Source of the DNA: a virus
Lineage: Duplodnaviria; Caudoviricetes
IMG/VR virus record: IMGVR_UViG_3300027801_000061
Location: 1-39,139 of that record
Direction: 5' to 3' (one strand)
DNA: 39,139 nt
In this document: positions 10-39,139 of the stretch, in pieces
Position numbering within the stretch: the first letter of the stretch is position 1
Layout of the letters: every line of letters starts with the position of its first letter
Made by a program: the position numbers and the translations under genes
Notes under the pieces: generated by a model
Seen by the model: only the letters and a program-made list of their open reading frames with translations
What the model was told of the DNA's origin: nothing
Databases searched by the model: none

Positions 10-480
10 TCAGTTCTTGACGGTACCTTTCGCCACGCGCATGCCTGCAGTCTTAAGCGTACCGACGCACAGTTTCACGCGGTCCGCGTCACCTGTCGCT
101 ACACAGAGGTCGTGCCAGATCTGCGCGTTGTTTGTGTTTGTGTGCTTACTGAACCGCGTCTTAGCTATCCCTGCCTGCTGTGCAGGCGTACGCGGTCCAC
201 GCGGACGCTTTACGGTCGCCTTAGGTGCAGGTGGCGTCTTCCCACCGCGGCTCTTACGTTCTGCAGTACCGTTGCCTTTCGGCGCAATCGTGAACGTAGG
301 CGCGGGATCCTCTGCAGGTTCCACGATCGTCACGGGCGTCACGGGCGTCACGGGCGCCACGGGCGCCACGGTCGGCACGGTCGGCGCAATCGCAGGAGTC
401 TGCAGTGCATAGCCTGCAGCAACAAGCATTGTCGCTAGGTCTGCGAGCTTAATAGTTACGGTGTCTTGTGTGTTCGTCAT
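10..480 (-). CDS. First early protein, Pro/Thr/Val-rich linker and basic C-terminal half (156 aa, MTNTQDT...)
   Basis: SD TAAGGA and ACACA before ATG at 480. Differences between the two terminal copies are almost all at third codon positions in this frame. Confidence 0.8.
   Translation of the reverse strand: MTNTQDTVTIKLADLATMLVAAGYALQTPAIAPTVPTVAPVAPVTPVTPVTIVEPAEDPAPTFTIAPKGNGTAERKSRGGKTPPAPKATVKRPRGPRTPAQQAGIAKTRFSKHTNTNNAQIWHDLCVATGDADRVKLCVGTLKTAGMRVAKGTVKN
322..384. repeat. 9-bp tandem repeat, 7 imperfect units (cacgggcgt-like), encoding PTV/APV/TPV
   Basis: cacgatcgt cacgggcgt cacgggcgt cacgggcgc cacgggcgc cacggtcgg cacggtcgg. Confidence 0.9.
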
Positions 481-562: not shown

Positions 563-741
563 CTGTCCTATGTTTGTATGGGGAAAGTCGGGGTCGACGT
601 TAAACCATTACCCTAGCGGCATGCGTCTTTCCATGGTATTTCACGATATACCACGCTACAGAGGCACCCGATCACGCTACAGGGAGGGAAGAAGGCTACA
701 GAGACGACAGACCTACAGACGCAACGCCCACAGACCTCGAT

Positions 742-785
742 GGGGGGGTATAGGGGGGGGCGGGGGTGCGCGCGTGTGTATATAT
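742..785. other. G-tracts followed by a 20-bp alternating purine/pyrimidine run
   Basis: gggggggtataggggggggcggggg then gtgcgcgcgtgtgtatatat, in the divergent non-coding region. Confidence 0.7.
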
Positions 786-1237: not shown

Positions 1238-1717
1238 ATGGACATGGAAGCTGGAGAGACGCCATCTGATTATCATTGGTCTTACAATTCGGACGTTGGT
1301 GAGGAGGAGCCTCCTCCGATTGTGCTGACGTATCTGGAAAATTTGACTTCTTTGGAACACGACCGCCTGTCTGATAAGGCGTGGGCTGCCGAGAACGGGA
1401 TCGCTGATCGGACGTTGCGGCGTTGGAAGAAAGATGAGCGGTTTCGGAAGTTGTGGACGAAGATGGCTGATAGTTCGGTGTTGGGGCCTGACGCTATTTC
1501 GCCGATTTATCATGCGGCGTTGAAAATTGCTGCTGATCCTGATCATCCGAAGTGGGATGCTGCGTCGAAAATGATTTTGTCGTTGGCTGACAAGGTGCGG
1601 CCTCCGACTTTGCAGATCAATGTGACTGCTGAGGATCGGTTTACTAACATGTCTGATGATCAGCTCCAGACGTATTTGTCTAAGGGCAAGGATGTGTTGG
1701 AGATCGGTCCGACGTGA
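1238..1717 (+). CDS. terS: Terminase small subunit (HTH); start may be 1244
   Basis: HTH-like AAENGIADRTLRRWKKDERF; overlaps the terL start (GTGA). Confidence 0.75.
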   Translation: MDMEAGETPSDYHWSYNSDVGEEEPPPIVLTYLENLTSLEHDRLSDKAWAAENGIADRTLRRWKKDERFRKLWTKMADSSVLGPDAISPIYHAALKIAADPDHPKWDAASKMILSLADKVRPPTLQINVTAEDRFTNMSDDQLQTYLSKGKDVLEIGPT

Positions 1718-15783: not shown

Positions 15784-16215
15784 ATGTCTGTGTCTGATTT
15801 CTTTGCTGCCGAGAAGCCTGCGTTTGATCGCCAGCGCGACATCGCCGATTACGGGTACCAGAATGCTTTGGTCCGTAACTCGGCTCAACGGCAGTCGTTG
15901 AACGTCGAGCGCCTCAATGCGACTCGACGTTTGGGTAAGCAGTTGACTGCCCGTCGGCAGCAGATCCCTGGGCAGTTCACGGGTCGCGGTTTGCTGAACA
16001 GCGGCATTTATGGCAAGGCGTTGGGCGATTTTGAGACTGCTCGTTTGCAGGCTGAGTCTGGTTTGTCTCGCGGGTTTCAGAAGCGGGGCATGGATTTGTC
16101 TCAGCAGCTTTCTTCGGCTGAGATGAATCGTCTGATTCAGTTGGCTGATGTTGATTTGAATGAGGCTCAGCGTCGTACTGCGATTGCGGGCATGTTGCAG
16201 GGGGCTACGAGCTGA
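15784..16215 (+). CDS. Putative internal virion (ejection) protein
   Basis: Helical Q/R/A-rich protein with RGLLNSGIY motif; SD AGGAGG; first of three genes of increasing size. Confidence 0.7.
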   Translation: MSVSDFFAAEKPAFDRQRDIADYGYQNALVRNSAQRQSLNVERLNATRRLGKQLTARRQQIPGQFTGRGLLNSGIYGKALGDFETARLQAESGLSRGFQKRGMDLSQQLSSAEMNRLIQLADVDLNEAQRRTAIAGMLQGATS

Positions 16216-17561
16216 TGGCAATCACATGGCCTTCGTGGGATGACATAGCAGAGGAATTCGATGAGAGTGTGCTCGGTACGGGCTGGGATAAAATTGGGGA
16301 TGTTATAGATCAAATTCAGGGCGCACCTGACGAAACATTTGATGTTCCAGGGAATGATCCTGAAACTCTTTCGGGCCTGTTTGGCAATATCCCGATGACT
16401 GCTGGGGGGGCTTTAATAAACCCTAGTAATTCGGATATGGGGAACATGCAGTTCCGCATTGCTGCAGCGTGGCAGCACGCTCAGCAAGTCGCAAAGGTGC
16501 AGGGTAAAGCTGTTGGGGATACTTGGGAGAGCAATCCAGACCGAAAACCCGCTCTGGTAAATGCGGCCGATTGGCAGTACAAATACATAAAAACTCAGTC
16601 GGCTTTAGATTCTGCGGCTAACAAAAGTTACTTTGACTCTTTGTATGGTTCTGGATCTTCGGGCGGCACGGGTATAGACACCGCCAGTTTGGAGATGCAA
16701 CAGGCCGCTATTGAGGACACTCTTGCTCGGTCGATGGAACAGATCGCTTCACAGTTTGAGTTGATGACTGCCGAGATGGAACGGCAGAAGGAGGCTTCTG
16801 CTTTGGAGATGGACGCTGCCCGTGTGGCGGCGCTTGAGTCGTTGACTGCAATGTCGGCGGATCTTGAACAGACTTCGACCAGAACTCAGGCCCAGATGGC
16901 TGCTTCTGCTTTGCGTACTGGCGGAGACATTGGTGCTGCTACAGAGGGTGCGTTGCGCCGTTTGGGTTCGACTTCTGATGTGATTTCTGATGGGGCGCGT
17001 CGTGCCATTGAGGAGGAGGGCCAGTCTGAGGTTGGTTTGGCTGCGTCTGAGGCTCAGATTCAGTCTGATTTGTCTGCCCGTTTGGGGCAGATCACTGAGG
17101 GTCAGTTGGGTCGTTCTCGTGGGTCTGCTGAGCAGATCGCTCAGGGCGGTCAGACGGCGATGTCTGCGAGTATGGCTTCGCTGTTGTCGCAGCAGCAGGC
17201 TCAGCGTTCTGGCACAGAGTTTGAGGTGGGCGAGAATGCCCGTCAGGCTGCTTTGGAGTTGGCGTTGAATCCGCCGACTCGTTCTTGGGGTGGTACTGCT
17301 GGTGGTCCTCTTGCTGGTATGGACCATATTCGTCAGGCGGGGCTTGACTACGGCATGTCAGAAACGGAGATCATGCTTCGCATTGAAGCTGGCACGATGT
17401 TTGACAGGTTGGGCGTTGGGAAGCAGACGGGCAACAATAACGCTCAAATATTGTCTCAAGTCAAGACTGACGAGGAGCTAGCTGCTCTGGCGGTAAGCGA
17501 TAAGGGCGTAGTGAATCAAGATGTCATTGACGCTCTAGCCCTCGGTGGTGGATACCCATAG
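16215..17561 (+). CDS. Putative internal virion (ejection) protein
   Basis: Ala/Gln/Ser-rich coiled coil; coupled to both neighbours. Confidence 0.7.
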   Translation: MAITWPSWDDIAEEFDESVLGTGWDKIGDVIDQIQGAPDETFDVPGNDPETLSGLFGNIPMTAGGALINPSNSDMGNMQFRIAAAWQHAQQVAKVQGKAVGDTWESNPDRKPALVNAADWQYKYIKTQSALDSAANKSYFDSLYGSGSSGGTGIDTASLEMQQAAIEDTLARSMEQIASQFELMTAEMERQKEASALEMDAARVAALESLTAMSADLEQTSTRTQAQMAASALRTGGDIGAATEGALRRLGSTSDVISDGARRAIEEEGQSEVGLAASEAQIQSDLSARLGQITEGQLGRSRGSAEQIAQGGQTAMSASMASLLSQQQAQRSGTEFEVGENARQAALELALNPPTRSWGGTAGGPLAGMDHIRQAGLDYGMSETEIMLRIEAGTMFDRLGVGKQTGNNNAQILSQVKTDEELAALAVSDKGVVNQDVIDALALGGGYP

Positions 17562-20500
17562 TGTCTACCACTGAGTTTGATCAAGCCATTGCCGACATAG
17601 CGGCAAAGCACGATGTTTCAGAACAAGCTGTTCTGAACATCAAGAAGAACACGCCACGGTTGGCGGCGTTTGATCCTCTCGACCCTCAAGGGACGTGGGA
17701 TCCCATCCACGACTTCAGTGGCTCTGGTGGCGTTTCTGGCCAGTCTTTCGCTAACCCAGCCTTTCAGCTTTCGGATTCGATGATCGAAGCGATCCGTGCG
17801 AGTTGGAAGAAAGACGACGTTGATGAACGCGGCGGGATCACGGGCGCTTTGCTCGGTGTAGGCGAAACGATTCTGACAGCGATTGATCTGCCTCGGGCTG
17901 GTGTTGTTTCTACGATCAAAGAGTTTGGTGACATCTTTGACTCTGATGAAAAGTTCTCTCTAAACGAGTGGGGCAGTCAGCTTGGTTTGGGCGAAGAGCG
18001 TGCCATCGGGTTTGGTGACTTAATACACGACTGGGCACCTGGCCTGGGCGAGATCGAAATGTTTGGTGTGAAGCCGCTGGACAATCTTGCTGGGTTTGTT
18101 GGCGATGTCTTGTTCGATCCGTTTACTTGGCTGACATTGGGCACTTTGCCGATGGCGAAACAGGGCACTATGGGTGTCGTAAAGATGCTTGATGCTTTGG
18201 GCGATACGGTCAAAGCTCGTGCTGTGATGCGGAACGGTGTCCGTGCTTTGTCTGGCGATGATCTGGCTCGGTTGACCGTTTCGGCACGCAGCAATGGTTG
18301 GATTGGTGCCGCTGATGAACTCAAGGGCGGTATCCAGTTCAGGATCCCTGGCAGCAAAACGTTGTCTCGTCTCCATAGCGGGCCTACGAAGGCGAAACAG
18401 TTGCAGCTAATGTCTCAGGACAACATGCTGTTGAGGTTCACTCCCCGTATGGGAGCGAACACTGCGGCTCAACGGGTCCGCCTTTCAGCTTTGGGCGGGT
18501 TCTTCGGCGGGGACAGAAACCTTCTTAAGACTGCTTTGCGTGACCCGAATGTTTCTGACGACGTTTGGCGGGGGGCATTCCACGGGATATTGGCTGACAA
18601 TGTTGGCCGAGGGATCGAGAAGAGTCTCGACAATTCGTTGACTCAAGCTTGGAATGTCCTTGATCAAATGATCGTCAAGGAAGGTGTCAGCGGCAAAGTT
18701 GCTTATCGTGCGATGGGGATGGATGTTGCCCCCGATGGCATGTCTCAGGAGCTGTTTGAGGCGTTGACGGCGTTCAGTGATGACGTTCTGAAACAATCGA
18801 ACGACATCATGCGCGAGTCGATGGATGGCGTTGATTGGCTTGTTCGACGCAGCAACTGGCAGCCGACGTACAGGACGCAGGAATTTCGTCTCTGGTTGAA
18901 AGAGGCACGTAAAAGTGAGCCTTCTGGCGGCATGTTCGACATGCAGGGCTTTGAGAAGCAAGCGAACATTGTTGCTGGCGGCGAGTTCATGGGCGTCCCG
19001 CTTGTAGACGCCTCTGAAGATGCTGCTCGACGCGGGATCTTGTTGGACGACGGAACTGTTGATGTTGCTAAGGGCCGTGGCCCGAGGGAACAAGCGGTCA
19101 ACATTCTTGAAGAGAACGCTGCCGAGAACGGGTATGGGCACGATGAAATCTTTGACTGGTTCGAAGACGATGTGTTTGTGGCGATGCCACAACACATCAA
19201 GTTGTTGTCTCGTCGTGCCCGTGGCAAGTATGTCGAACGTAAACTTCGTAAAGTTGGTGTGAATCTGGATCGCACCGTCACTTTGGATGCGTCGGTGCGG
19301 CAGGCCAGAGATTACCGTCAGGTTGATGAGGTTCTGAACGATCTGAATCTTCAGATCGAAGAACTTGAGGCGGCAGCAGTTTTGGAACGGGAAGCTGCTG
19401 ATGCTGCCCGTGACGGTGGTATGCCGTTTGCTCAGCGTGGCGTTGACCTTGAGAACAAGATTATTGAGACGCTGCGGTGGCATGCCGATCAGGCTAAGAA
19501 GGCAGCAAAGTTTGGTGTCACTTGGGTTCCGCCGTCGAAGAACGGCACTATTTGGCGGCAGCTGGCTGGAGAAAGTTTGGAAGACGCTGAGCGGATCGGC
19601 CGTTTAGCTGATCAGCGTTCTGATGAGGCGTTTAACAACATAGAGGTGTTGAAGGATGGTGCTGCTGCTCTTGAGCGCCGCGCCGACTATTTGGAAGGTG
19701 AACTTGATCGGATTAAGGGCGGGCTTAGCAAGCTTCGTGCCCGTCAGGCAAATCTGCGCCTTGAGCAACATGATCTGTACGCAAAGGTAGAGCTTCAGGT
19801 TTCGCAGGGGACGCGTGCAGCGTTGAAGGATTTGGCGCGGTTGGATGAGATCGCTCAAGATCTGCGTGACATCAACGAGCCGCTAGCTGCGGCTCGTACG
19901 AGTTTCCTTCTTCAGGCTGGCGAGATCGAAGAGGCCCAAGAGGTCATCAGGATGTCGGCGAAAGTTGTTGTGGGTTCTAACGTTGTTGAGGAGCAGCTCA
20001 GAAAACTGAAAAGACTGTTTCAGTTCAAAAAGGGTTTCCCTAATGATCTTCAGTCTCAGGATGCTTGGGCTAAGCAGGTCAGCAGTTTGATGGACGAAAT
20101 GAACATCCCGTTGAACCTTCGACCAAAGACGTACGAGGCGCTAATCGACTTTGAGATAAATATTGGGCGGGCGCGTCGGGCTGCTGGCCGAAATGTTGCT
20201 GTTGCCCGCAAGGTGATGAGCGCTGCGACTTCTGAGCACACTGATTTGAAGGCTTGGCAGAAAGAGATGGTCGCTGAACGCGACAGTTTGATCGCCCAGT
20301 TGGGTGACGATTTACCGCCTGATGTTGCTGAGGAGATCCGTCTTTCTTTGGAAACTTTGGCTCCTACGAAGGACGGCTACATGTCGTTTGACGGGTCGAC
20401 TGCTTTGTATCACGGTATGAATCGGAATCATGCCGAGATCGATTTGAATAAAGTTCCTGATGCCGCGTCGAGGTCTACTAGCGAGATCGATTCGATTGGG

Positions 20501-23500
20501 CAGCTTCACCTTTCGTTCGATCATGAGATTAGTTTGCGGTACGCTAGCGATCCTTCGAAGATCTTGGGGTTTCGGATGGTTGCGAAGAACCCTGTGATTT
20601 ATGGCGGGACTGGCGACGATTTCTTGCATGGGCATACTGCTTTGTGGGGTCAATCTTCGGAGTCGCATCGCGGTCGCGGTTTGGCTCAGATGCATGTGGA
20701 CATGGTCGATTCTGGGGTGAGGAACGGCCATATCACTTTGGAACATATGAAGGAGATGGGTGTCCCGAACGCTCAACGTATTTGGGATTTGATGGGCGGT
20801 GCCCCTCAGCGTCCGTATGTTCCGATCCTGCCGTTTCTTGACGGTTTGCCTAAACGGATGACTAGAGCTGAAATCGATCACGCTGGCCGTACTTCACTCT
20901 CGCACCCTCGTGGCAGAGATTTATTTGAGCGGTGGAAGCGTGGCCCTCACCCCAGAGATGTAACTTACAGTGACGTTAATTTTGATGATCTTGATGAAGC
21001 CGCACAGGCTATGTGGATCGAGAACTGGAACACGGGCTGGAGCAGGGACGGCACCGTAAATCTCCAAAACTTTCACGAGATAGAGGTTAATCAACTATTT
21101 GATGATGATCTTTGGGAGACAGGAGATTGGATCTCGACTCTAGATATTTCGGATTGGGCGGATGCTCCTGGGACTGGCGATGTGCTCGCTGATGTCCGCG
21201 AGATGCGTGAACGGCTCTATCTGACCGCTCAAGTCAGGATGGACGCCCTCGACGACATCGGCGCCCTCGACCTCGATGCGGACACCATCGGGGTGTGGGT
21301 TAAAACTAGCGATTTGGCAGGCGACACTGACGAAGTTATTCCGACCCAGATTTATGCGCCTGATGACAAAGCCAATGTGGTTCTAGTACAGATCCCTCCT
21401 GAAGCGGTCAGACACATCGTGCCCATCACCTCAAACCCTAAAGCAATTGTTAACAAATCAATTCTGATCCAAGCCCGCACTAATATGGATGACGCCAAAG
21501 CGGCCGTCGAGAAGTCTTTAAGGGTTGAAGAACTGATCGGCGTTCAGAGCGGCGTCAAACTGTCTTACTCGGAAGCGGCCGCTATTGTCGGCGACGACGG
21601 CACCCAACCTTTTCCCATCACAGGTATCATTTCCGAACTCCGCGACGAACACAAGCAAGTGGCCCATCGTGTGCAACAGATGGGCGGAACCATGGCCGAG
21701 TACGATTCTGGTGCAGTGGACATTCTGGCTCGGGGCGGGATGGACCTTCTAACATACCAAGGCAGCCACGACGCTGCTGGAATTCTTAATGCTCTCGCTC
21801 TGGAAGATCCGACGCTTCTGGGCCGTTTGAAGTACAAGCGTTCCCCATGGACAGGCAACCGTTCGGCTGGAGCTGGCGGGCCTTTGAGCAAAGAAGGTGT
21901 ACTGCAAGAGGAGCGGTGGATCGCCAACCTGATCGTTAAAGCTAAACGAAACGGTGTTGAGCCGTTGGAGAGAATCCCTCTAACCCCGAAGCAGCTTGTA
22001 GAAGACCCGAATGGTCAATGGTTCAATACTTACATCAAGCCAGTTTCTTCGAATCAGTGGATTGGCGGCAGCCCCGCCTCAGGATTGTCCAGCATGGGAG
22101 GTTCACAACTGAAGGACGACTTTGCTGACGGGTTGATGGATTGGGTAGCGGATTTCCATCGGGAGCTTCGCGCCGAAGGTTACGATTCGATCTTGTACAC
22201 AGGGTTTGAGCACGGCGGGCAATGGAACGCTATTCCGTTGGATCCGAAGAAGCAGTTACAGCCGTTTGCGGGTGGCGCCGACGAGTTGACGCCTAAGAAC
22301 AAGGACTCTTTGAACGCCTCTATGTTGGGTGATGAGGACACTAGTAAATCGTTTATCACTTCACGAGAGTTTGGGAAACAGTTAGACGATGCTGCCAGTG
22401 GCTCAGGGGCAATTGGCGGCGCTAATGCGATTGGCTCCAGTCCTAAAAACATAATCAGATATCAAAGCAGAATGGACGTTAATAAAGCGCTGGATTCAGC
22501 CGCGCTTGGGATTGAAGCTACCTCAAAAAAGAACTGGGCCAAGCACGAATACGATGTCATCACGGATCGCGTCGAGTCGACATTAAATGACTTCGAATCC
22601 ACCATTGAGACCTGGGTTACCCAGAACTTTGTCGATTCGACTGGCGGGAATACCAGGCATCCAGAGCAAATCCTAACGAATTTGACTTCGGCCAGAGGGA
22701 AACTTGCTCAGGAAATCGGCGCGCTGAGTAAGGTTGCTGACAAAATAGAAGCGATCGATCCTGCTCAAGCGGCGGCTATGGCCGCTCCCCTCAGGCAACA
22801 AATAGACATGTTGCGGAAATACCTTTCCGACACTACTCAAGTTTCGTGGAGCATCGGTCGTGCTTTCTCTGAGGCGAAGCGTGTAGGAGCAAAGAATCTT
22901 CAGGCCCGTACTGCCAAACAGTTTGTGGGGTTGATCGATGAGTCGATGCTGGCCTTGGAGGCACGCAAAGTAAAGAGGTATCAGGAGATTGCTGATGCCG
23001 CTGACGAGATCTCTCCCTTTGTTGCTGAGGCTCAGGGCAGTGTTCGGCAAGCTGCCGAGCAGCTTGCCGAGAACCAGCGAAGGATCGCTCAGATCGACGC
23101 TGATATGGCTGAGGAGGCTACTACAGCGGACGGGACGGTGGCGTATTTTAGGTCTCAGGAGTTGAGTCTCAGGGGTGAGGCGACTGAGCGGTTTGAGATG
23201 GCTAATCGTCTTGATAATGAGGAGCTTGAGGCTGCTGAGCGGGCGAGGCGGGCGTCTGTTACGGATGTGAGCATGGATGGTGTGCCTGTGCCTCGTCCTT
23301 CGGAGCGGGTTGCTTCTGTGGAAGTTCCTAATGTTGCGGCTGGTCGTGTTGCCGATATGCGGGTTGAGCGTGCGGCTCAGACTGTGTCGTTGAATCAGAC
23401 GAACGCCCAGTTTCTTCGGTTGGAGGCTAATGCGAAGATGTTGGAGGCCGATTTGGCCCGTCTGTCCCATGACAGGGATTTGATTGCTACTCGGTTTGCG

Positions 23501-24865
23501 ACGATGTCTATGCCTGAGCGCACCGAGGCTTTGTCTTCGGTTATGCGTGGGTTTACGGCGTTCGGTGCTGATGGTCAGATTCCTGAGGAAGTGGCTCAGG
23601 GTTTGGCTGATGTGAATCGGATTATTGGTGCGCGTGGCAGCAATAGTGTTGTGACGGTTTTTGACAAGGTGAACGACTTGTTTAAGGCGTGGGCTATTGC
23701 GTCGCCTGGTTTCCATTCTCGGAACTTCTTTGGCGGCGTGTTCAATAATGCTTTGGCTGGTGTTGAGCTTTCTTCGTATGGTCGTTTCCATCAGCTTTAT
23801 AAGCCTGTGCGGGCTGCTATTGATGCGGGTGGTTCTGTTGATGAGCAGGTGGCTGCGTTGCGGGGCAGCAAGCAGGCTCAGAGGCTGGTAGATAGCGGCA
23901 ATGGTCGGTTTGTGGATCACATGGCGACGTTGATGCGGAACGGCGTTTTGAATGGTGGTCAGACGACGGAGTTGCAGAGGGTGGCTCGGGCGCGGTCGAT
24001 CAATCCGTTGAACCCGAACAACATTGTTACGGCTACGGCCCGTCGGCCTGCGTTGCATGTTGAGAACATGTTGCGTGGGACGTTGGCGATGGACAGGCTC
24101 ACGAAGGGTCTTGATATTGATTTGGCTGTGGCTGACGTGTACAAGTATCACTTCGATTATGACGATTTGTCTGGGTTTGAGCGTGGCGTGATGCGGCGTG
24201 CGATCCCGTTCTATACGTGGACTCGCAAGAATTTGCCGTTGCAGTTGGAGATGATGTTTAAGAACCCGAAGGTTTATAACCGTGTTCATTCTTTGAAGCG
24301 GGAACTTGAGCGGGATTCGGAGAAGGAAACGTTGTTGCCGAAGTGGATCGAGGATCGGTTCCATATCCAGTTGCCTATGTCGATGGGCGGCGATTCGGTT
24401 TTCTTGGTTCCTGATTTGCCGTTTGCCGAGCTTGATCGGGCGATGAACCCGAGGCTGATCGTTGCGTCTATGAGTCCTTTGGTTAAGATTCCGTTGTCTG
24501 AGATTGCTGACAAGAACTTCTTCTTTGATAGCGATTTCCGCGATGATTACAAGCCGTTGCCGAAGGCGTGGGACACCGTTTTGGCTCCGTTGTTGCCTGC
24601 GTTGCATGGGGCTGGGATGGTTGGCCGTCGTGAGGATGGCGAGTGGGTGGCTACTGATCGGAACATGCACCATTTGGAGTCGACGTTGCCGATTTTCTCT
24701 GCGCTGCGTCGGCTGTGGCCGACGTTGGGTGACGAGAAGACTGAGTCTCGCACTATGCAGAACTGGGTGAACTGGACTTCAGGTATCGGGTTTAGGCGGA
24801 TCACTGAGGATCAACGCAAGTGGGAGCAGTGGCGGCGCGACAACGCAGAGTGGCTGGATCGGTAG
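17561..24865 (+). CDS. Giant internal virion / polyvalent protein (2434 aa) with coiled coils and a putative ART-PolyVal-like domain
   Basis: GFVGDVLFDPFTW near the N-terminus; PGFHSRNFFG and FDYDDLSGFER..MRRAIPFYTWTRKN near the C-terminus, typical of large podovirus ejection proteins; LYHG...RYA...AKNP and LRAEGYDSI...PLDPKKQL in the middle. Confidence 0.8.
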   Translation: MSTTEFDQAIADIAAKHDVSEQAVLNIKKNTPRLAAFDPLDPQGTWDPIHDFSGSGGVSGQSFANPAFQLSDSMIEAIRASWKKDDVDERGGITGALLGVGETILTAIDLPRAGVVSTIKEFGDIFDSDEKFSLNEWGSQLGLGEERAIGFGDLIHDWAPGLGEIEMFGVKPLDNLAGFVGDVLFDPFTWLTLGTLPMAKQGTMGVVKMLDALGDTVKARAVMRNGVRALSGDDLARLTVSARSNGWIGAADELKGGIQFRIPGSKTLSRLHSGPTKAKQLQLMSQDNMLLRFTPRMGANTAAQRVRLSALGGFFGGDRNLLKTALRDPNVSDDVWRGAFHGILADNVGRGIEKSLDNSLTQAWNVLDQMIVKEGVSGKVAYRAMGMDVAPDGMSQELFEALTAFSDDVLKQSNDIMRESMDGVDWLVRRSNWQPTYRTQEFRLWLKEARKSEPSGGMFDMQGFEKQANIVAGGEFMGVPLVDASEDAARRGILLDDGTVDVAKGRGPREQAVNILEENAAENGYGHDEIFDWFEDDVFVAMPQHIKLLSRRARGKYVERKLRKVGVNLDRTVTLDASVRQARDYRQVDEVLNDLNLQIEELEAAAVLEREAADAARDGGMPFAQRGVDLENKIIETLRWHADQAKKAAKFGVTWVPPSKNGTIWRQLAGESLEDAERIGRLADQRSDEAFNNIEVLKDGAAALERRADYLEGELDRIKGGLSKLRARQANLRLEQHDLYAKVELQVSQGTRAALKDLARLDEIAQDLRDINEPLAAARTSFLLQAGEIEEAQEVIRMSAKVVVGSNVVEEQLRKLKRLFQFKKGFPNDLQSQDAWAKQVSSLMDEMNIPLNLRPKTYEALIDFEINIGRARRAAGRNVAVARKVMSAATSEHTDLKAWQKEMVAERDSLIAQLGDDLPPDVAEEIRLSLETLAPTKDGYMSFDGSTALYHGMNRNHAEIDLNKVPDAASRSTSEIDSIGQLHLSFDHEISLRYASDPSKILGFRMVAKNPVIYGGTGDDFLHGHTALWGQSSESHRGRGLAQMHVDMVDSGVRNGHITLEHMKEMGVPNAQRIWDLMGGAPQRPYVPILPFLDGLPKRMTRAEIDHAGRTSLSHPRGRDLFERWKRGPHPRDVTYSDVNFDDLDEAAQAMWIENWNTGWSRDGTVNLQNFHEIEVNQLFDDDLWETGDWISTLDISDWADAPGTGDVLADVREMRERLYLTAQVRMDALDDIGALDLDADTIGVWVKTSDLAGDTDEVIPTQIYAPDDKANVVLVQIPPEAVRHIVPITSNPKAIVNKSILIQARTNMDDAKAAVEKSLRVEELIGVQSGVKLSYSEAAAIVGDDGTQPFPITGIISELRDEHKQVAHRVQQMGGTMAEYDSGAVDILARGGMDLLTYQGSHDAAGILNALALEDPTLLGRLKYKRSPWTGNRSAGAGGPLSKEGVLQEERWIANLIVKAKRNGVEPLERIPLTPKQLVEDPNGQWFNTYIKPVSSNQWIGGSPASGLSSMGGSQLKDDFADGLMDWVADFHRELRAEGYDSILYTGFEHGGQWNAIPLDPKKQLQPFAGGADELTPKNKDSLNASMLGDEDTSKSFITSREFGKQLDDAASGSGAIGGANAIGSSPKNIIRYQSRMDVNKALDSAALGIEATSKKNWAKHEYDVITDRVESTLNDFESTIETWVTQNFVDSTGGNTRHPEQILTNLTSARGKLAQEIGALSKVADKIEAIDPAQAAAMAAPLRQQIDMLRKYLSDTTQVSWSIGRAFSEAKRVGAKNLQARTAKQFVGLIDESMLALEARKVKRYQEIADAADEISPFVAEAQGSVRQAAEQLAENQRRIAQIDADMAEEATTADGTVAYFRSQELSLRGEATERFEMANRLDNEELEAAERARRASVTDVSMDGVPVPRPSERVASVEVPNVAAGRVADMRVERAAQTVSLNQTNAQFLRLEANAKMLEADLARLSHDRDLIATRFATMSMPERTEALSSVMRGFTAFGADGQIPEEVAQGLADVNRIIGARGSNSVVTVFDKVNDLFKAWAIASPGFHSRNFFGGVFNNALAGVELSSYGRFHQLYKPVRAAIDAGGSVDEQVAALRGSKQAQRLVDSGNGRFVDHMATLMRNGVLNGGQTTELQRVARARSINPLNPNNIVTATARRPALHVENMLRGTLAMDRLTKGLDIDLAVADVYKYHFDYDDLSGFERGVMRRAIPFYTWTRKNLPLQLEMMFKNPKVYNRVHSLKRELERDSEKETLLPKWIEDRFHIQLPMSMGGDSVFLVPDLPFAELDRAMNPRLIVASMSPLVKIPLSEIADKNFFFDSDFRDDYKPLPKAWDTVLAPLLPALHGAGMVGRREDGEWVATDRNMHHLESTLPIFSALRRLWPTLGDEKTESRTMQNWVNWTSGIGFRRITEDQRKWEQWRRDNAEWLDR

Positions 24866-34759: not shown

Positions 34760-35019
34760 GTCTTCTTCCAGTCTGCATAGTCGTTGGGAACTTCGGGGTA
34801 CTCTGTGGGCAGCAGCGGACGTTCGTGCAGAACGTCTGCGTCTGTGAACTGATGGCCCTGCACGAAGTTGCCGTGCATGGCTGCTTCCAGCACATGGCCG
34901 AAGGCTTCGCCGTCGGCGGCTTGCCTCTTCTCACGTTCGTGGTACAGGGCCAGGATCCAGCTCCCTACGATCATGATCATGACCATGATCGCCCAGAACG
35001 CTCCCAGTGATGTGTTCAT
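34756..35019 (-). CDS. Single-TM membrane protein (87 aa)
   Basis: LGAFWAIMVMIMIVGSWILALY. Confidence 0.7.
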   Translation of the reverse strand: MNTSLGAFWAIMVMIMIVGSWILALYHEREKRQAADGEAFGHVLEAAMHGNFVQGHQFTDADVLHERPLLPTEYPEVPNDYADWKKT

Positions 35020-35128
35020 ATCTGCTCTCTTTCTGTGGCTGCTACAGCAGCCGTCTTGTGTAGGTTCTTTCTTAATGAGCGGCTCCCTGAGGGGAGCCGC
35101 GAATGCAAGGCTGGAGAACTGCGTTCTC

Positions 35129-35158
35129 ATTATAACGCAGCCCTCCAGCCCCGTACAA
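35129..35158 (-). promoter_or_regulatory. Putative promoter TTGTAC-N18-TATAAT with the -10 inside an inverted repeat
   Basis: Consensus TATAAT on the minus strand at 35129-35134. Confidence 0.5.
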
Positions 35159-35179
35159 ACACGCTCTGTGTAGTAGCCC

Positions 35180-35296
35180 CTATGTGCAGGACGTCCAGCA
35201 GGCATCTGGCCCGAGAACGTAGGGCAGGCGAGTCGCCACAAGGGCTGCTAGAGCAAGCAGTGCGGCAACGAATGCGATGTCGTAGATGCGATTCAT
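35180..35296 (-). CDS. 38-aa hydrophobic peptide (MNRIYDIAFVAALLALAALV...)
   Basis: TM-like stretch; starts 5 nt after the upstream stop. Confidence 0.5.
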   Translation of the reverse strand: MNRIYDIAFVAALLALAALVATRLPYVLGPDACWTSCT

Positions 35297-35301
35297 GCTG
35301 T

Positions 35302-35598
35302 TCAGTCCCGCAGAGCGGAGTCGCCTGCAGGACCGTCGCTGGCCCACTCGCCGTCGTCGGGGTTGTGTGGCCCGTGGTCGCCTTCTTCCATGTACAGCCA
35401 GCACGTCGGGCACAGGTAGAACTGCACAGGCCGTGGCACGTTGTTCATGATGATCTCGCGGTGTGCAGGGTGCCAGTCCCCATCGGGGAAATGCGTCTTG
35501 ACGTTGCCGCCTGCCTTGTACGCCGCGAACTTGGTCGCGGAGACTTCTACAGACTGGATGGAGCTGCAGTCGTTGCATGTGGATGTGAGTGTGATCAT
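35302..35598 (-). CDS. Early protein with two CxxC motifs
   Basis: CNDC...REII...YLCPTCW; SD TAAGGAG. Confidence 0.8.
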   Translation of the reverse strand: MITLTSTCNDCSSIQSVEVSATKFAAYKAGGNVKTHFPDGDWHPAHREIIMNNVPRPVQFYLCPTCWLYMEEGDHGPHNPDDGEWASDGPAGDSALRD

Positions 35599-35691
35599 TG
35601 TGTGTATCTCCTTATCTGTGAAGCGGGATCGCTTCAGGGAACCTTCACACCGTAGGCGGAAGGCTCCCCGCAGAGATCCTCTCTCTGTGTC

Positions 35692-35979
35692 CTAGCGCCA
35701 GACGTTCTCGCAGGCGTCGTCGTAGTCTCCCTGTGTGGCGAACAGCTTGCCGCAGCCGTTCTTCACGGTACACAGCACAGACCCCTCGGGCATGCCGACC
35801 TGCTCGGGGAAGTACGCCCCGCCCTGCAGGTGGCCTTCGCCGTTGCCTGTGCCCAGGCTGGAGCTGTGGGTGCAGATCCCGCTGCGACGCAGAGCCGCAC
35901 CGTGGCGTGCCTCTTCGACGTACAGAGCCATCTCGATGTCGGCATCCTGAATGGTTGCCTCTTCGTCGTATCCAAACAT
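35692..35979 (-). CDS. Early Cys/His protein
   Basis: CTH...C....GCG; SD AAGGAG. Confidence 0.8.
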   Translation of the reverse strand: MFGYDEEATIQDADIEMALYVEEARHGAALRRSGICTHSSSLGTGNGEGHLQGGAYFPEQVGMPEGSVLCTVKNGCGKLFATQGDYDDACENVWR

Positions 35980-36060
35980 TGTGTGTATCTCCTTGTGTAG
36001 GTGAAGCGGAGTGCTTCGTGATCCCTGCAGACAGCAATGCCTGCAGGGATCCCGCTGTAC

Positions 36061-36444
36061 TCAGCCCTGTGCAGCGCGACGGGCAAACGCCGCGTCCTCG
36101 GCATCGTTGCCGTAAGGGGCGAACTCTGCAGGCATGTCATCCGACTGCCACACAGTGACGTCCATGTCGCGCAGGCGTCGGCAGAAGAACTGGAAACGGT
36201 CTACAGCGTCCACCCAGTCGAGGTCATAGGAGCCGCTCCCCCAACCTCGCGCGTCGTCGTCGTCGAGTCGTGCATCTGTGAAGAACACGAAACGCTGCGC
36301 GGGGTTGCGGGAGCCTGTGCACATGTCTGGGGCATCCACGATGCCATGCAGAACCTGCACAGTGCCGAATCCTGCAGGCTGCACAATCGCAGCGACCAGA
36401 GTGTGGCCGTTGATGGTTGTAGGGATGGTGTGTGTGGTCGACAT
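36061..36444 (-). CDS. Early hypothetical protein (GWGSGSYD motif)
   Basis: SD AAAGGA; bounded by leader modules. Confidence 0.78.
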   Translation of the reverse strand: MSTTHTIPTTINGHTLVAAIVQPAGFGTVQVLHGIVDAPDMCTGSRNPAQRFVFFTDARLDDDDARGWGSGSYDLDWVDAVDRFQFFCRRLRDMDVTVWQSDDMPAEFAPYGNDAEDAAFARRAAQG

Positions 36445-36525
36445 GAGTCGATCCTTTCTGTATGTGTGAAGCGGAGTGCTTCAGGATCTCTACAGATATC
36501 GCTACCTGCAGAGATCCCGCTGCAA

Positions 36526-36714
36526 TCACTTGCGGCGCTTGTCTTTCGATGGTCGGAACTCTGCACGATCTCCCACAGAGACCCACTTGCCGTCGCGCTC
36601 GTTGCCGTCACAGGAACCCCTGTTTGGCCTGCAGTGTGTGCATTGGCCCTGCGCTAGGCGTGCCCTGTTGCGCTCGACCTTCGTTGTGTAGCTATCAAAT
36701 CCTCCACCAGTCAT
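36526..36714 (-). CDS. Small basic early protein with CTHC (62 aa)
   Basis: SD AGGAGG before ATG 36714. Confidence 0.72.
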   Translation of the reverse strand: MTGGGFDSYTTKVERNRARLAQGQCTHCRPNRGSCDGNERDGKWVSVGDRAEFRPSKDKRRK

Positions 36715-36724
36715 GGCGGCCTCC

Positions 36725-36742
36725 TGTGTGTGTGTGTGTGTG
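36725..36742. repeat. (TG)9 microsatellite, read as (CA)9 just upstream of an SD
   Basis: Seen directly. Confidence 0.9.
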
Positions 36743-36811
36743 ATGCGGAGCATCGGCGACGGCACCACCTCTGCAGGCGATGCCGTCGCCGTCGTCTGTA
36801 TCAGTTGATTA

Positions 36812-37051
36812 TCACAGACGGCTGCCCTTGATCACAATCGTCGCCCATGAGACCCGCCCTGCAGACTCGTTCTCCTGCACAGCGGCATCGATCTCGGCGA
36901 GCACCTCTGCAGCCCGAGCCGCCACACCGCGGAATCCTTCCTGTGCAGCGATCCGCTGATCATGGATCAGTGCAGCGCGCAGATCCATCAGCGACACAGA
37001 GATCTCTAGACCCTTTGAGTAGGTGAATGTAACTGTCTGTTCTGTAGCCAT
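36812..37051 (-). CDS. Early hypothetical protein (79 aa)
   Basis: SD AAGGAG before ATG 37051. Confidence 0.75.
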   Translation of the reverse strand: MATEQTVTFTYSKGLEISVSLMDLRAALIHDQRIAAQEGFRGVAARAAEVLAEIDAAVQENESAGRVSWATIVIKGSRL

Positions 37052-37166
37052 TTCTGTATGTCTCCTTGTGTAGGGATGCGGGATCGCATCCTTGATTGAC
37101 GCTGTAGAGCATCGGGCAACACGCCACGGGGGTACCGCGGCATGCTGCACGTCGTCTGCAGACCGA

Positions 37167-38099
37167 CTAGGCGAACGTCACAGCAACCTCTGCAGACGGG
37201 TTCCTGATGAATCCCTTGTGATCGATGTTCTTGTAGCCGCGGGGCAGCTTGTAGCGCAACCCGACGACCACGCCCTGCAGATCACGGAAACGCAGATCGT
37301 GTTTGTCGCCGTCGATCACTCTGTGGCCCACGTACGTCTGTGGCAGATCCTCACCGCGTCGCACAGTGAACGGGATCACCACGTTTCGCCCTGCAGCGAT
37401 CTCGGCGTGAATCTCGGCGTCTGTAGTGTTCTCAGTCGCCGACAGCACCCTGTACAGGTTCGGACGTGCCCAACCCATCTGCAGATCATGACGCTTGCTG
37501 TAGTCTGTGAACACCACAGACGGGAACTGCTCTGTGAGCCACACAGGCACATTCACATCCGTTGTGCCATTGATTCGCACACACAGACGCTTGCCCTTCC
37601 GCTCTACACGAGCCTTGTTCCGCCGAACCTCTGCAGCCATCTGCGACCAGAACAACGACGGCGCACCGTCTGTAGTAGCACCCGTGTTTGCGTACAGAGC
37701 CGTTCGTGCAAGCTTCGCACGCTCCGCCATCGCGAGCCTGCCTGCAGTGTGCAGACAAGCTCCCCTGCAGCCCTGTGTGCTGTGTACACACATGTTCTCG
37801 AACAGCATCTCTACAGAGTCACGCCACATCTGCGGCACAGTCTCACGCCACAGAAGCCCGCCTAGCCTGTGCGGCAACATGTAGCAGATCGCCTGCTCCC
37901 ACTCTGTAGCGTCGTCGTCGACCCACAGAGCACCATCAGGCGCCTGTGCAGACTCATTCTTCTGCAGCTTGCCCACAGCCCGCTGTGGCGTCAACAAGTA
38001 GGCGGAAAGTCCGCCACCAACCATCTGCGACACGCTCTGCAGCAACGCTGCAGAATCACCTGCAGGCAACCGCGTCCCATCGATCCTGTAATTTCCCAT
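37167..38099 (-). CDS. GP88-like protein with a Cys triad (radical-SAM-like Fe-S motif)
   Basis: NMCVHSTQGCRGACL..AGR, VRINGTTD, FTDYSK, VIDGDKHDLRF.D..GVVVGL; SD AAGGAG. Confidence 0.78.
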   Translation of the reverse strand: MGNYRIDGTRLPAGDSAALLQSVSQMVGGGLSAYLLTPQRAVGKLQKNESAQAPDGALWVDDDATEWEQAICYMLPHRLGGLLWRETVPQMWRDSVEMLFENMCVHSTQGCRGACLHTAGRLAMAERAKLARTALYANTGATTDGAPSLFWSQMAAEVRRNKARVERKGKRLCVRINGTTDVNVPVWLTEQFPSVVFTDYSKRHDLQMGWARPNLYRVLSATENTTDAEIHAEIAAGRNVVIPFTVRRGEDLPQTYVGHRVIDGDKHDLRFRDLQGVVVGLRYKLPRGYKNIDHKGFIRNPSAEVAVTFA

Positions 38100-38187
38100 T
38101 TCTGTATATCTCCTTGTGTATGTGATGTCTACTGTAGAGCATCGCGCACGCCACACACACACGCTGTGTGTGTGGCGTCCATGTCGC

Positions 38188-38379
38188 CTACAGAGCCTCG
38201 ACTATTTCGAACGTGACCCGAACGTAACGATCACGCGGCCCCGTACGTATCGGCACGTACTGTGTAGCCTTGCCTGTAGTCCTAGGCGACGTGCCCTTCT
38301 GTAGCCGCGTCCCTAGCGTGTTTATGGTTTCCAGTATTTCGATGCCTGTAGGCGCGGTGTCTGTAGCAAGCATGATCAT
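38188..38379 (-). CDS. Small early protein (63 aa)
   Basis: ATGA overlap with the upstream gene. Confidence 0.65.
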   Translation of the reverse strand: MIMLATDTAPTGIEILETINTLGTRLQKGTSPRTTGKATQYVPIRTGPRDRYVRVTFEIVEAL

Positions 38380-38780
38380 TGCGCCACGTCACCCATCAAG
38401 CGACGGCATCGCTCCCACCGCTCCCCGAAATAGGGCGCAGGAACGTCCTCTGTGTAGAAGGGCAGACGGTCATCCTGCAGACGGTACGCAATCCACTCGG
38501 CGCGTTCCTCTGCAGAGTGATCCTGCAGAAACCACAAACCCGATGCCAGACGGTCCCGCACATAACGATCATGTGCATCGTCTGTGTCATAGCTCCACAC
38601 AGTTACCGCGTGTAGGCGCAAGTTCCAAAAACCGCCCTCTGCAGAGCCTTCCGTTGTGTAGCCTCGCGGCATGTAGCGTTGGATCTCGCGCTCTGCAGAC
38701 TCCAGATCACGATCACCGCGGACGCCTATGTAGCCTAGGAATCTGTCGCCAAACCTATTGATATGTAGCTCTTGTGTCAT
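38376..38780 (-). CDS. Early hypothetical protein (134 aa)
   Basis: ACACA-ATG leader like neighbouring early genes; YVRDRLASGLW motif. Confidence 0.75.
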   Translation of the reverse strand: MTQELHINRFGDRFLGYIGVRGDRDLESAEREIQRYMPRGYTTEGSAEGGFWNLRLHAVTVWSYDTDDAHDRYVRDRLASGLWFLQDHSAEERAEWIAYRLQDDRLPFYTEDVPAPYFGERWERCRRLMGDVAQ

Positions 38781-38794
38781 TGTGTGCATCTTTC

Positions 38795-38812
38795 TGTGTG
38801 TGTGTGTGTGTG
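38795..38812. repeat. (TG)9 microsatellite in an early-gene leader
   Basis: Seen directly. Confidence 0.9.
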
Positions 38813-38880
38813 CGATGCCTGTAGGGCATCCCGCACGCTACCGACTAACTAGGGTCGGCCGATAGCGTGCCAGTCGCCTA

Positions 38881-39139
38881 CAGAGCGAATCAGTTCTTTA
38901 CGGTACCCTTAGCGATACGCATGCCTGCAGTCTTAAGCGTACCGACGCACAGTTTCACGCGGTCCGCGTCACCTGTCGCTACACAGAGGTCATGCCAGAT
39001 CTGCGCGTTGTTCGTGTTTGTGTGCTTACTGAACCGCGTCTTAGCTATCCCTGCCTGCTGTGCAGGCGTACGCGGTCCACGCGGACGCTTTACGGTCGCC
39101 TTAGGTGCAGGTGGCGTCTTCCCACCGCGGCTCTTACGT
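38881..39139. repeat. Terminal duplication of positions 1-259 (circular overlap or terminal redundancy)
   Basis: Direct comparison shows mismatches only at offsets 19, 28, 31, 34, 36, 37, 112 and 133; offsets 134-259 are identical. Confidence 0.95.

Follow-up and report, generated by a model that had tools for sequence, protein, structure and literature searches.

A dense carpet of the palindromic word CTRYAG was analysed in the early genes of an IMG/VR virus genome (record IMGVR_UViG_3300027801_000061; Caudoviricetes), which bears on the open question of how phages with short tails retain, draw in and shield their leading DNA on entry into a cell. The whole analysed stretch of 39,139 nucleotides is termed the window in the following, and it represents a marine podovirus-like phage. 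In cluster A mycobacteriophages, a phage protein with different specificities in different relatives has numerous binding sites, the stoperators, which are 13-bp, asymmetric, mostly intergenic sequences read by a helix-turn-helix (HTH) repressor, with a site orientation that follows transcription. The carpet shares with stoperators the multitude of sites and the differences between relatives, and a gp88-family gene lies in the same early arm of cluster A phages. In contrast, the sites are here 6-bp palindromes within genes, CTGTAG and CTACAG are both present, and neither an integrase nor an immunity repressor was found among the 61 proteins scanned, where small HTH proteins could escape detection.

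Further parallels are offered by virion proteins which act on entering DNA. In coliphage N4, an injected virion RNA polymerase is inactive until bound to C-G..A-G hairpins in the first-entering DNA (PMC4496689). The window encodes a giant virion protein which is likewise predicted to be injected and which would act on signals in the leading DNA, and sister lineages feature hairpins closed by the same C-G pair around a G..A loop. Nevertheless, N4 has few promoters, whereas the sites number in the tens here and extend through coding sequence. Moreover, the giant protein yielded no polymerase motif, the early promoters look host-type, and the code of the window is not a hairpin, the C-G-closed G..A triloop being restricted to the sister lineages G002 and L128. 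In phage P1, the virion methylase-helicase DarB protects injected DNA in cis (PMC5512222); a virion protein acting in cis on injected DNA would be the common feature, but no methylase was found in the window phage. The ejection proteins of cyanophage A4 contact packaged genomic DNA in the capsid (PMC12002296), and its pre-ejectosome proteins gp26 and gp27 (PDB 9k3a) are the top, albeit weak (Z 5-6), structural match of both modelled parts of the giant protein. The two parts are located on two chains in A4 and in one protein here, and a word carpet is absent from phage A-4L. For polyvalent transferases, action on host macromolecules has been predicted (PMC5512222, PMC9503650). As with ART-PolyVal proteins (PF18760; PMC5512222) and T4 Alt, the giant protein is large, predicted to be packaged in the head and injected, and modelled with an ADP-ribosyltransferase fold. 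It differs in an insert of 250-500 amino acids splitting the domain, in a His of strand 2 in place of the Tyr given in PMC5512222, and in its cognate DNA array, which the available part of that article does not mention. A review of mini-hairpins covers, in its available part, single origins and promoters (PMC13037366). Within the full texts searched (few subscription papers), no description of such a carpet was found, the searches covering also phage DNA ADP-ribosylation on entry, ART-PolyVal and mini-hairpins of early genes. The carpet is neither an N4 promoter set nor a stoperator array, and only a candidate for a restriction-site array. The phenomenon is solid and seemingly undescribed, and the proposal of a reader is testable and draws on few lineages.

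The CTRYAG carpet at one genome end

Exact counting of positions 36001 to 38886 yielded 43 CTRYAG sites, comprising 26 CTGCAG, 12 CTGTAG, 5 CTACAG and 0 CTATAG, as a first-pass annotation made by a model from the letters had estimated. The 10 additional sites it had reported within positions 1 to 800 were likewise recovered, including four CTACAG (656, 677, 696 and 713), and the whole window holds 101. Sites occur within genes as well as leaders (37 in 2804 bp of coding and 15 in 896 bp of non-coding early DNA) and are sparse in the structural genes at 1238 to 24865 (20 sites, 0.85 per kb), again in agreement with the first reading. In 1000 dinucleotide shuffles of 36001 to 38886, only 3.8 ± 1.8 sites appeared, with a maximum of 10. 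The longer variant CTRYRYAG, also reported as numerous, was observed 9 times compared to 1.3 ± 1.1 expected from 300 shuffles. Permutation of synonymous codons, which preserves both protein sequence and early codon usage, gave 10.0 ± 2.3 sites (maximum 18) for nine early genes of 3393 bp in total, where 41 were observed. Synonymous choice thus favours the motif, and an origin as a by-product of codon or dinucleotide composition is rejected by both nulls; the idea of a code at the DNA level, laid over coding sequence, stands. Under the same codon null, 8 structural genes held 9 sites with 10.0 expected and 8 middle genes 13 with 4.8 expected. Of the positions at which the protein sequence permits the word, it fills 40 of 64 in early genes, while the respective values for middle and structural genes are 13 of 61 and 9 of 171. 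A wider word family is raised as well (GTRYAG/CTRYAC 26 vs. 4.4; CTGTG/CACAG 40 vs. 8.7), and a poly(TG) signal is a separate feature of the leaders, also present in relatives.

The inner part of the carpet (35001 to 38880) comprises genes and leaders and features 5, 11, 16 and 17 sites per successive kb, while the outer part (1 to 820) joins position 38880 across an assembly overlap. The window end (38881 to 39139) duplicates positions 1 to 259 with 8 differences and contig L123 reads through the junction, so that both parts form a single continuous region. Starting at a G-run (742 to 766, plus strand), at which the carpet stops and which was found in every lineage examined, CTRYAG density per kb amounts to 13, 18, 12, 9, 4, 3, 2, 2, 2, 3, 1, 1 and 3. 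The density is therefore not uniform throughout the genome, but falls from 13-18 to 1-3 per kb within about 6 kb of this G-run beside terS, the terminase small subunit gene. Next to the G-run, a non-coding array (656 to 733, plus strand) consists of four CTACAG and one CCACAG in one orientation, spaced by 21, 19, 17 and 15 bp; every site is retained in the relative G001 although the spacers differ.

The G-run is probably located near the genome end, and the end bearing the carpet probably enters the cell first. The latter, which the first-pass annotation had likewise assumed, is suggested by an inward promoter-like site of the housekeeping-sigma type (562 to 534, minus strand; GTGACG, 17 nt, TACCAT; a pattern match only) and by the terminal position of gp88 homologues in isolated phages. 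In CRP-143, HTVC120P and HMO-2011, they lie at most 1.3 kb from the start of the record, and in cluster A mycobacteriophages close to the right end. The physical end was not located, as contigs from four runs extend beyond the G-run and share no stopping point, and contigs cannot reveal ends.

The CTRYAG sites constitute a sequence word and not a fold. A hairpin or cruciform is rejected by the pairing of site flanks (18 of 58 vs. 17.2 in shuffles), and no other hairpin register around the sites of the window was raised. RNA or single-strand folding showed an early excess of 1.3-2.8 kcal per 100 nt, similar to middle and late genes, and no helical phasing was found for periods between 9.5 and 12 bp. 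The word is under strong pressure, which extends to the encoded proteins. The gp88 gene offers 25 opportunities for it in the window (17 used) and 20 in G001 (15 used), but only 4-6 in four orthologues (0 used), which shows that amino acids are altered in addition to silent sites. When the window is aligned with G001, identity is found at 44 of 52 sites, compared to 66% of background 6-mers. A signal at the DNA level which reshapes proteins is the opposite of the palindrome avoidance in the same genome, where CCGG is absent and many other palindromes are avoided throughout; CCGG is also lacking in the close relatives G001-G009 and G012.

Codes of relatives and the giant virion protein

A comparison with relatives, as suggested by the first-pass annotation, was decisive, since the same region is filled by different codes, all of which peak at the same genome end. 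G001 shares CTRYAG with the window. In G002, L124, L126, L127 and L128, the region is filled with triloop C-GNA-G mini-hairpins, mostly C-GAA-G, with paired stems. The first flanks of the G002 hairpins are paired in 53 of 83 cases (22 in shuffles), and hairpin density in L007 rises to the end with 2, 10, 13 and 28 per kb. G003 uses TGSCA, with 21 TGCCA and 26 TGGCA where the codon null gives 5.2 and 9.7, at 11, 15, 17, 11 and 3 per kb. Partial early DNA of G007 and G008 contains window-like words, namely 31 and 39 TCTGY in 2.2-2.7 kb, compared to 30 in the window, 11 in G002 and 12 in G003 per 2.5 kb; complete early regions of the G004 type were not found in the scans. G009, G012, DS1 and ct52p938 possess a giant protein without the transferase domain and no carpet. 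Besides these relatives, an unrelated phage group features an AACC/AACCG carpet in and after gp88 in both orientations (G017:C1:2500-6000; L078:2000-4000; L065:1-2000), and in another group TCGCG/CGCGA is enriched in early genes around gp88 (L083:10000-12000; L064:11000-15000). In L127, a second, inverted copy of the early region is present, which may be an assembly artefact.

As judged from sequence comparison, the code is independent of the core genes and tracks the giant virion protein, a correlation over four code lineages. The window and G006, a fragment standing for L128 with the same identities in its shared genes, are 79-97% identical in 15 of 18 comparable genes and differ in code. 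The exceptions are a 448-aa gene (60%), the giant protein (39%) and gp88 (55%). Likewise, G002 and G003 differ in code and share 79-97% identity in most core genes and 87% in the tail spike, but 34% in the giant protein. The window and G001, with the same code, possess giant proteins of 90% identity. The family thus offers matched pairs of near-identical phages with different codes and different giants. In quick trees, the core genes separate window, G001 and G006 from G002, G003, G004 and G007, while the giant protein groups window, G001, G004 and G007, then G002 with G006, and G003 apart. The trees conflict, and the giant tree agrees with the codes; an approximately unbiased test rejected the grouping of window, G001 and G006 on it (p 2e-36). 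The window-like words of G007 and G008 are as the giant tree predicts. This co-change spans a distance of 10 kb between giant gene and carpet, with conserved genes intervening.

Several other phage proteins were rejected as readers of the code. TerS, primase and helicase are improbable readers, being 91-97% identical (terS 94-97%) between pairs of different code. WhiB is shared by window, G001 and G006 across two codes and was not found in G002-G004. Concerning gp88, only G017 of 12 other gp88-carrying records scored came near the word strength of G003, most of the others being weak, and G012 lacks the gene.

The giant protein (2434 aa; 17561 to 24865, plus strand) is of the large-polyvalent, ejection-protein type. 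Its position and fold matches predict that it is packaged in the virion and injected with the DNA. The genes of 143 and 448 aa upstream (15784 to 17561, plus strand) probably encode partners in an ejection module, as their position suggests, and the 448-aa protein diverges together with the giant one. According to the models, the giant carries a split ADP-ribosyltransferase fold. The first half (20423 to 20650; YHG, GQLHLS, KNPVIY) and the second half (22163 to 22300; GYDSILY, a variable loop and a W-N-A-I strand, preceded by a 500-aa insert) correspond to residues about 955-1030 and 1535-1580 and flank the variable insert. Within the transferase domain, only the giants of window and G001 contain an additional insert, which spans about 250 aa at positions 20800 to 21540 (residues about 1080-1327); its best match in an ESM search (0.81) is a lead only. 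With regard to the positions of the H-Y-D catalytic triad, the first His is kept, a His occupies the strand-2 position, as in several homologues above the PF18760 cut-off, and an Asp or Glu is located in the loop that precedes the final strand. This loop reads GFEHGG in window, G004 and G007, IRxDKG in G002 and G006 and GMREEVG in G003, and it sorts with the code class, yet so does the whole giant protein.

An ESM search gave ADP-ribosyltransferases as a lead (0.89), a profile of the transferase region finds 29 proteins, and 5 of 6 homologues scanned passed the ART-PolyVal cut-off (PF18760); the window giant itself had no Pfam match. For the middle model, the best match in VIA was the A4 pre-ejectosome (Z 6.0, root-mean-square deviation 4.8, 160 residues aligned), followed by ADP-ribosyltransferase folds at ranks 2-17 (Z 4.3-5.3). 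The C-terminal model, with a mean predicted local distance difference test score (pLDDT) of 79.5, comprises a conserved helical domain (23408 to 24862, plus strand) common to large polyvalent proteins. Its best PDB match in VIA was again the A4 pre-ejectosome (Z 5.2, deviation 4.7, 142 aligned), and in BFVD it matched large polyvalent proteins (E 1e-18) and, weakly, A4 gp26 (E 2e-4), the A-4L entry having 1114 aa, the same length as the ejection protein gp26. Foldseek against the PDB returned no match at E 0.001 for either model, and a PDB sequence search with both alignments nothing credible. No Pfam or PHROG match to a polymerase was obtained in the giant, the models of which leave out residues 1-925 and 1590-1950. 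The ejection protein gp27 of A-4L (L248:20116-25269) contains the motif LYHGT. Together with the match of the transferase model to one chain of the A4 pre-ejectosome, this points to a possible ADP-ribosyltransferase domain in a cultured phage.

Candidate readers of the code

The first-pass annotation had proposed a binding array for a phage or host protein, and the phage-protein version fits best as a candidate reading built on correlation. It is tentatively suggested, at somewhat less than an even chance, that the giant protein, once ejected, recognises the carpet of the first-entering DNA. The carpet region would form the leading end, and the 143-, 448- and 2434-aa proteins would form an ejection module whose giant member comes to lie at the inner membrane, on the side of the cytoplasm. 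Ejected ahead of the DNA, the giant would grip the first 4-5 kb to enter, with the ADP-ribosyltransferase-fold region and its variable insert as the part reading the words. Such binding would hold or escort the leading DNA until the host RNA polymerase takes over from inward promoters, and would confine ADP-ribosylation to the early region, the target being either the DNA, which is conjectural, or polymerase on it. Exchange of the ejection module would then lead to an early region exchanged or rewritten to match. A more specific lock-and-key version seems rather unlikely: the injected giant would recognise a lineage-specific carpet of words or hairpins and either ADP-ribosylate the entering phage DNA or be activated only by carpet DNA, with code and reader swapped among podoviruses as a two-part module.

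Several observations weigh against the giant protein as reader. The correlation covers four code lineages with about two to three independent swaps, and the giant tree joins long branches. A single protein family would have to recognise hairpins in one lineage but duplex words in the others. The codes of G004, G007 and G008 stem from partial early DNA without true ends, and in the same partial span L128 contains 27 TCTGY, window-like words that are probably inherited. The four carpet-less phages are not independent evidence, because the transferase-bearing phages form one clade. In G017, a carpet occurs with no transferase domain detected, so that the phenomenon is wider than the giant protein. 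Conversely, A-4L lacks a carpet (best word score 10) and encodes an ejection protein which bears YHG and matches in structure. Moreover, the middle model is of low confidence (mean pLDDT 49.5), all Z scores stay below 8, the trust level of the tool, so that the agreement of the matches is what counts, and no DNA-binding domain was identified in the giant.

Furthermore, the first early protein (10 to 480, minus strand) tracks the code equally well. A reader encoded in the early module, most likely this basic protein, might coat the region that encodes it and thereby draw this DNA in, protect it or silence it, while the giant changes in step through interaction with this protein or with the same host. 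This main alternative is unlikely, but it would explain the swaps simply, as reader and sites would move as one module. The first early proteins are basic throughout (isoelectric point 9.4-10.2) and group by code, with 53% identity between window and G001, 33% between G002 and L128 and no match between the groups. Nevertheless, linkage alone predicts this grouping and the change in step of the unlinked giant gene is left unexplained. Window and G001 already diverge in the C-terminal part, the N-terminal stretch of the G004 type is unlike that of the window though the words are window-like, and the Lys-Pro-Lys-Ala-Ser repeats in the L128 protein are the translation of the hairpin itself.

Ejection proteins and early genes are plausibly adapted to the host. 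It is hence conceivable, if rather doubtful, that a host-specific DNA-binding protein or methyltransferase reads the word and that code, early genes and ejection module all follow the host. This includes the restriction sponge or methylation primer put forward in the first-pass annotation, as CTGCAG and CTRYAG are PstI- and SfcI-type restriction sites. Carpets in phages without a window-type giant would fit, as would CGCG, which is depleted genome-wide and relaxed in the early regions of window (8.6 vs. 1.6 per kb) and G001 (7.4 vs. 2.1 per kb); a second local CGCG cluster lies beside the exonuclease gene (L001:8000-9000 of G001; L128:16000-17000). However, CCGG, TGCGCA, CACGTG and CAGCTG remain at zero in the early region, and palindrome avoidance tracks the core clade rather than the code. 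G002 and G003 share the 87% identical tail spike yet differ in code, and the window has its fibre tip in common with G003 (71%) and not with G001. The sponge or primer is further weakened by CTGCAG, which is not clearly avoided outside the early region (10 vs. 15.7), and by the sister code, since a hairpin with variable stem is neither a restriction-type nor a methyltransferase site. No cognate methyltransferase was found in the phage proteins.

Selection for a physical property, i.e., single-strand folding, cruciforms or left-handed DNA under the torsion of entry, with each lineage using its own vocabulary, is improbable. The sister code does form an extrudable hairpin of the N4 type, and runs of purine-pyrimidine alternation of at least 8 are raised in early DNA (window 6.7 vs. 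1.8, G003 5.8 vs. 2.2 per kb), but the site flanks of the window are unpaired, early-gene folding above the null is no greater than in middle and late genes, and such a property would not track the phylogeny of one gene. A context-dependent mutational process near the genome end with no reader at all is the least probable, as, despite altered amino acids, depleted YCAR-type words and a sink state that would likewise appear conserved, the gain is focused on one word (z 12) with mild losses (z about -3) except for CCGG, the word occupies 40 of 64 permitted positions, the array at 656 to 733 keeps its order while spacers change, and no deaminase or methyltransferase occurs among the 61 proteins.

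Gene content and further sequence features

The five runs containing at least half of the region were all marine or seawater metagenomes and might be where it originates, with no RNA dataset among the listed runs. The host is probably a member of the Actinobacteria, as suggested by WhiB alone; a GTDB scan for the host returned only distant matches in mixed bins. Plus-strand genes encode the terminase, a P22/SU10-type portal, capsid, tail spike, fibre and the three genes ending with the 2434-aa protein, and minus-strand genes encode WhiB, RusA, an AEP primase, a DnaB helicase, DUF932 and gp88. PADLOC detected defence genes in 0 of 15 proteins.

The carpet covers a series of early genes on the minus strand. 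The first early gene, mentioned above, encodes a Pro/Ala/Thr-rich protein of 156 aa (isoelectric point 10.2) without Pfam family. It is followed inwards by genes for 137 aa (38376 to 38789; 5 sites, which encode SAE three times and LQD twice) and 63 aa (38188 to 38379; 5 sites), and by the gp88-family gene (PF17338; 37167 to 38099; 16 sites), which in other phages marks early regions at the genome terminus. Three small genes with structured leaders (36812 to 37033, 36526 to 36714 and 36061 to 36444) precede two small Cys-rich genes on the declining flank (35692 to 35979 and 35302 to 35598). The intergenic leaders at 35960 to 36070, 36450 to 36530, 37050 to 37110 and 38095 to 38200 feature nested inverted repeats and then an AC-rich stretch ahead of the start codon, and point to RNA structure, because one stem requires a G-U pair on the mRNA strand.

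On the other side, terS (1238 to 1717, plus strand) adjoins the carpet. A domain of the dATP/dGTP diphosphohydrolase type (PF18909; 25057 to 25377) occurs only in window, G001 and G006; a PurZ-like gene was not present among the proteins scanned. A tRNA-Pro(GGG) was predicted by ARAGORN at 1041 to 1115 and is followed by a run of CTAG repeats (1117 to 1195), which is missing from one related contig. Upstream of terS, the non-coding stretch 895 to 1030 is conserved, with a matching segment near 35060 to 35110 and in all relatives, and possibly represents a small RNA or a repeated regulatory element.

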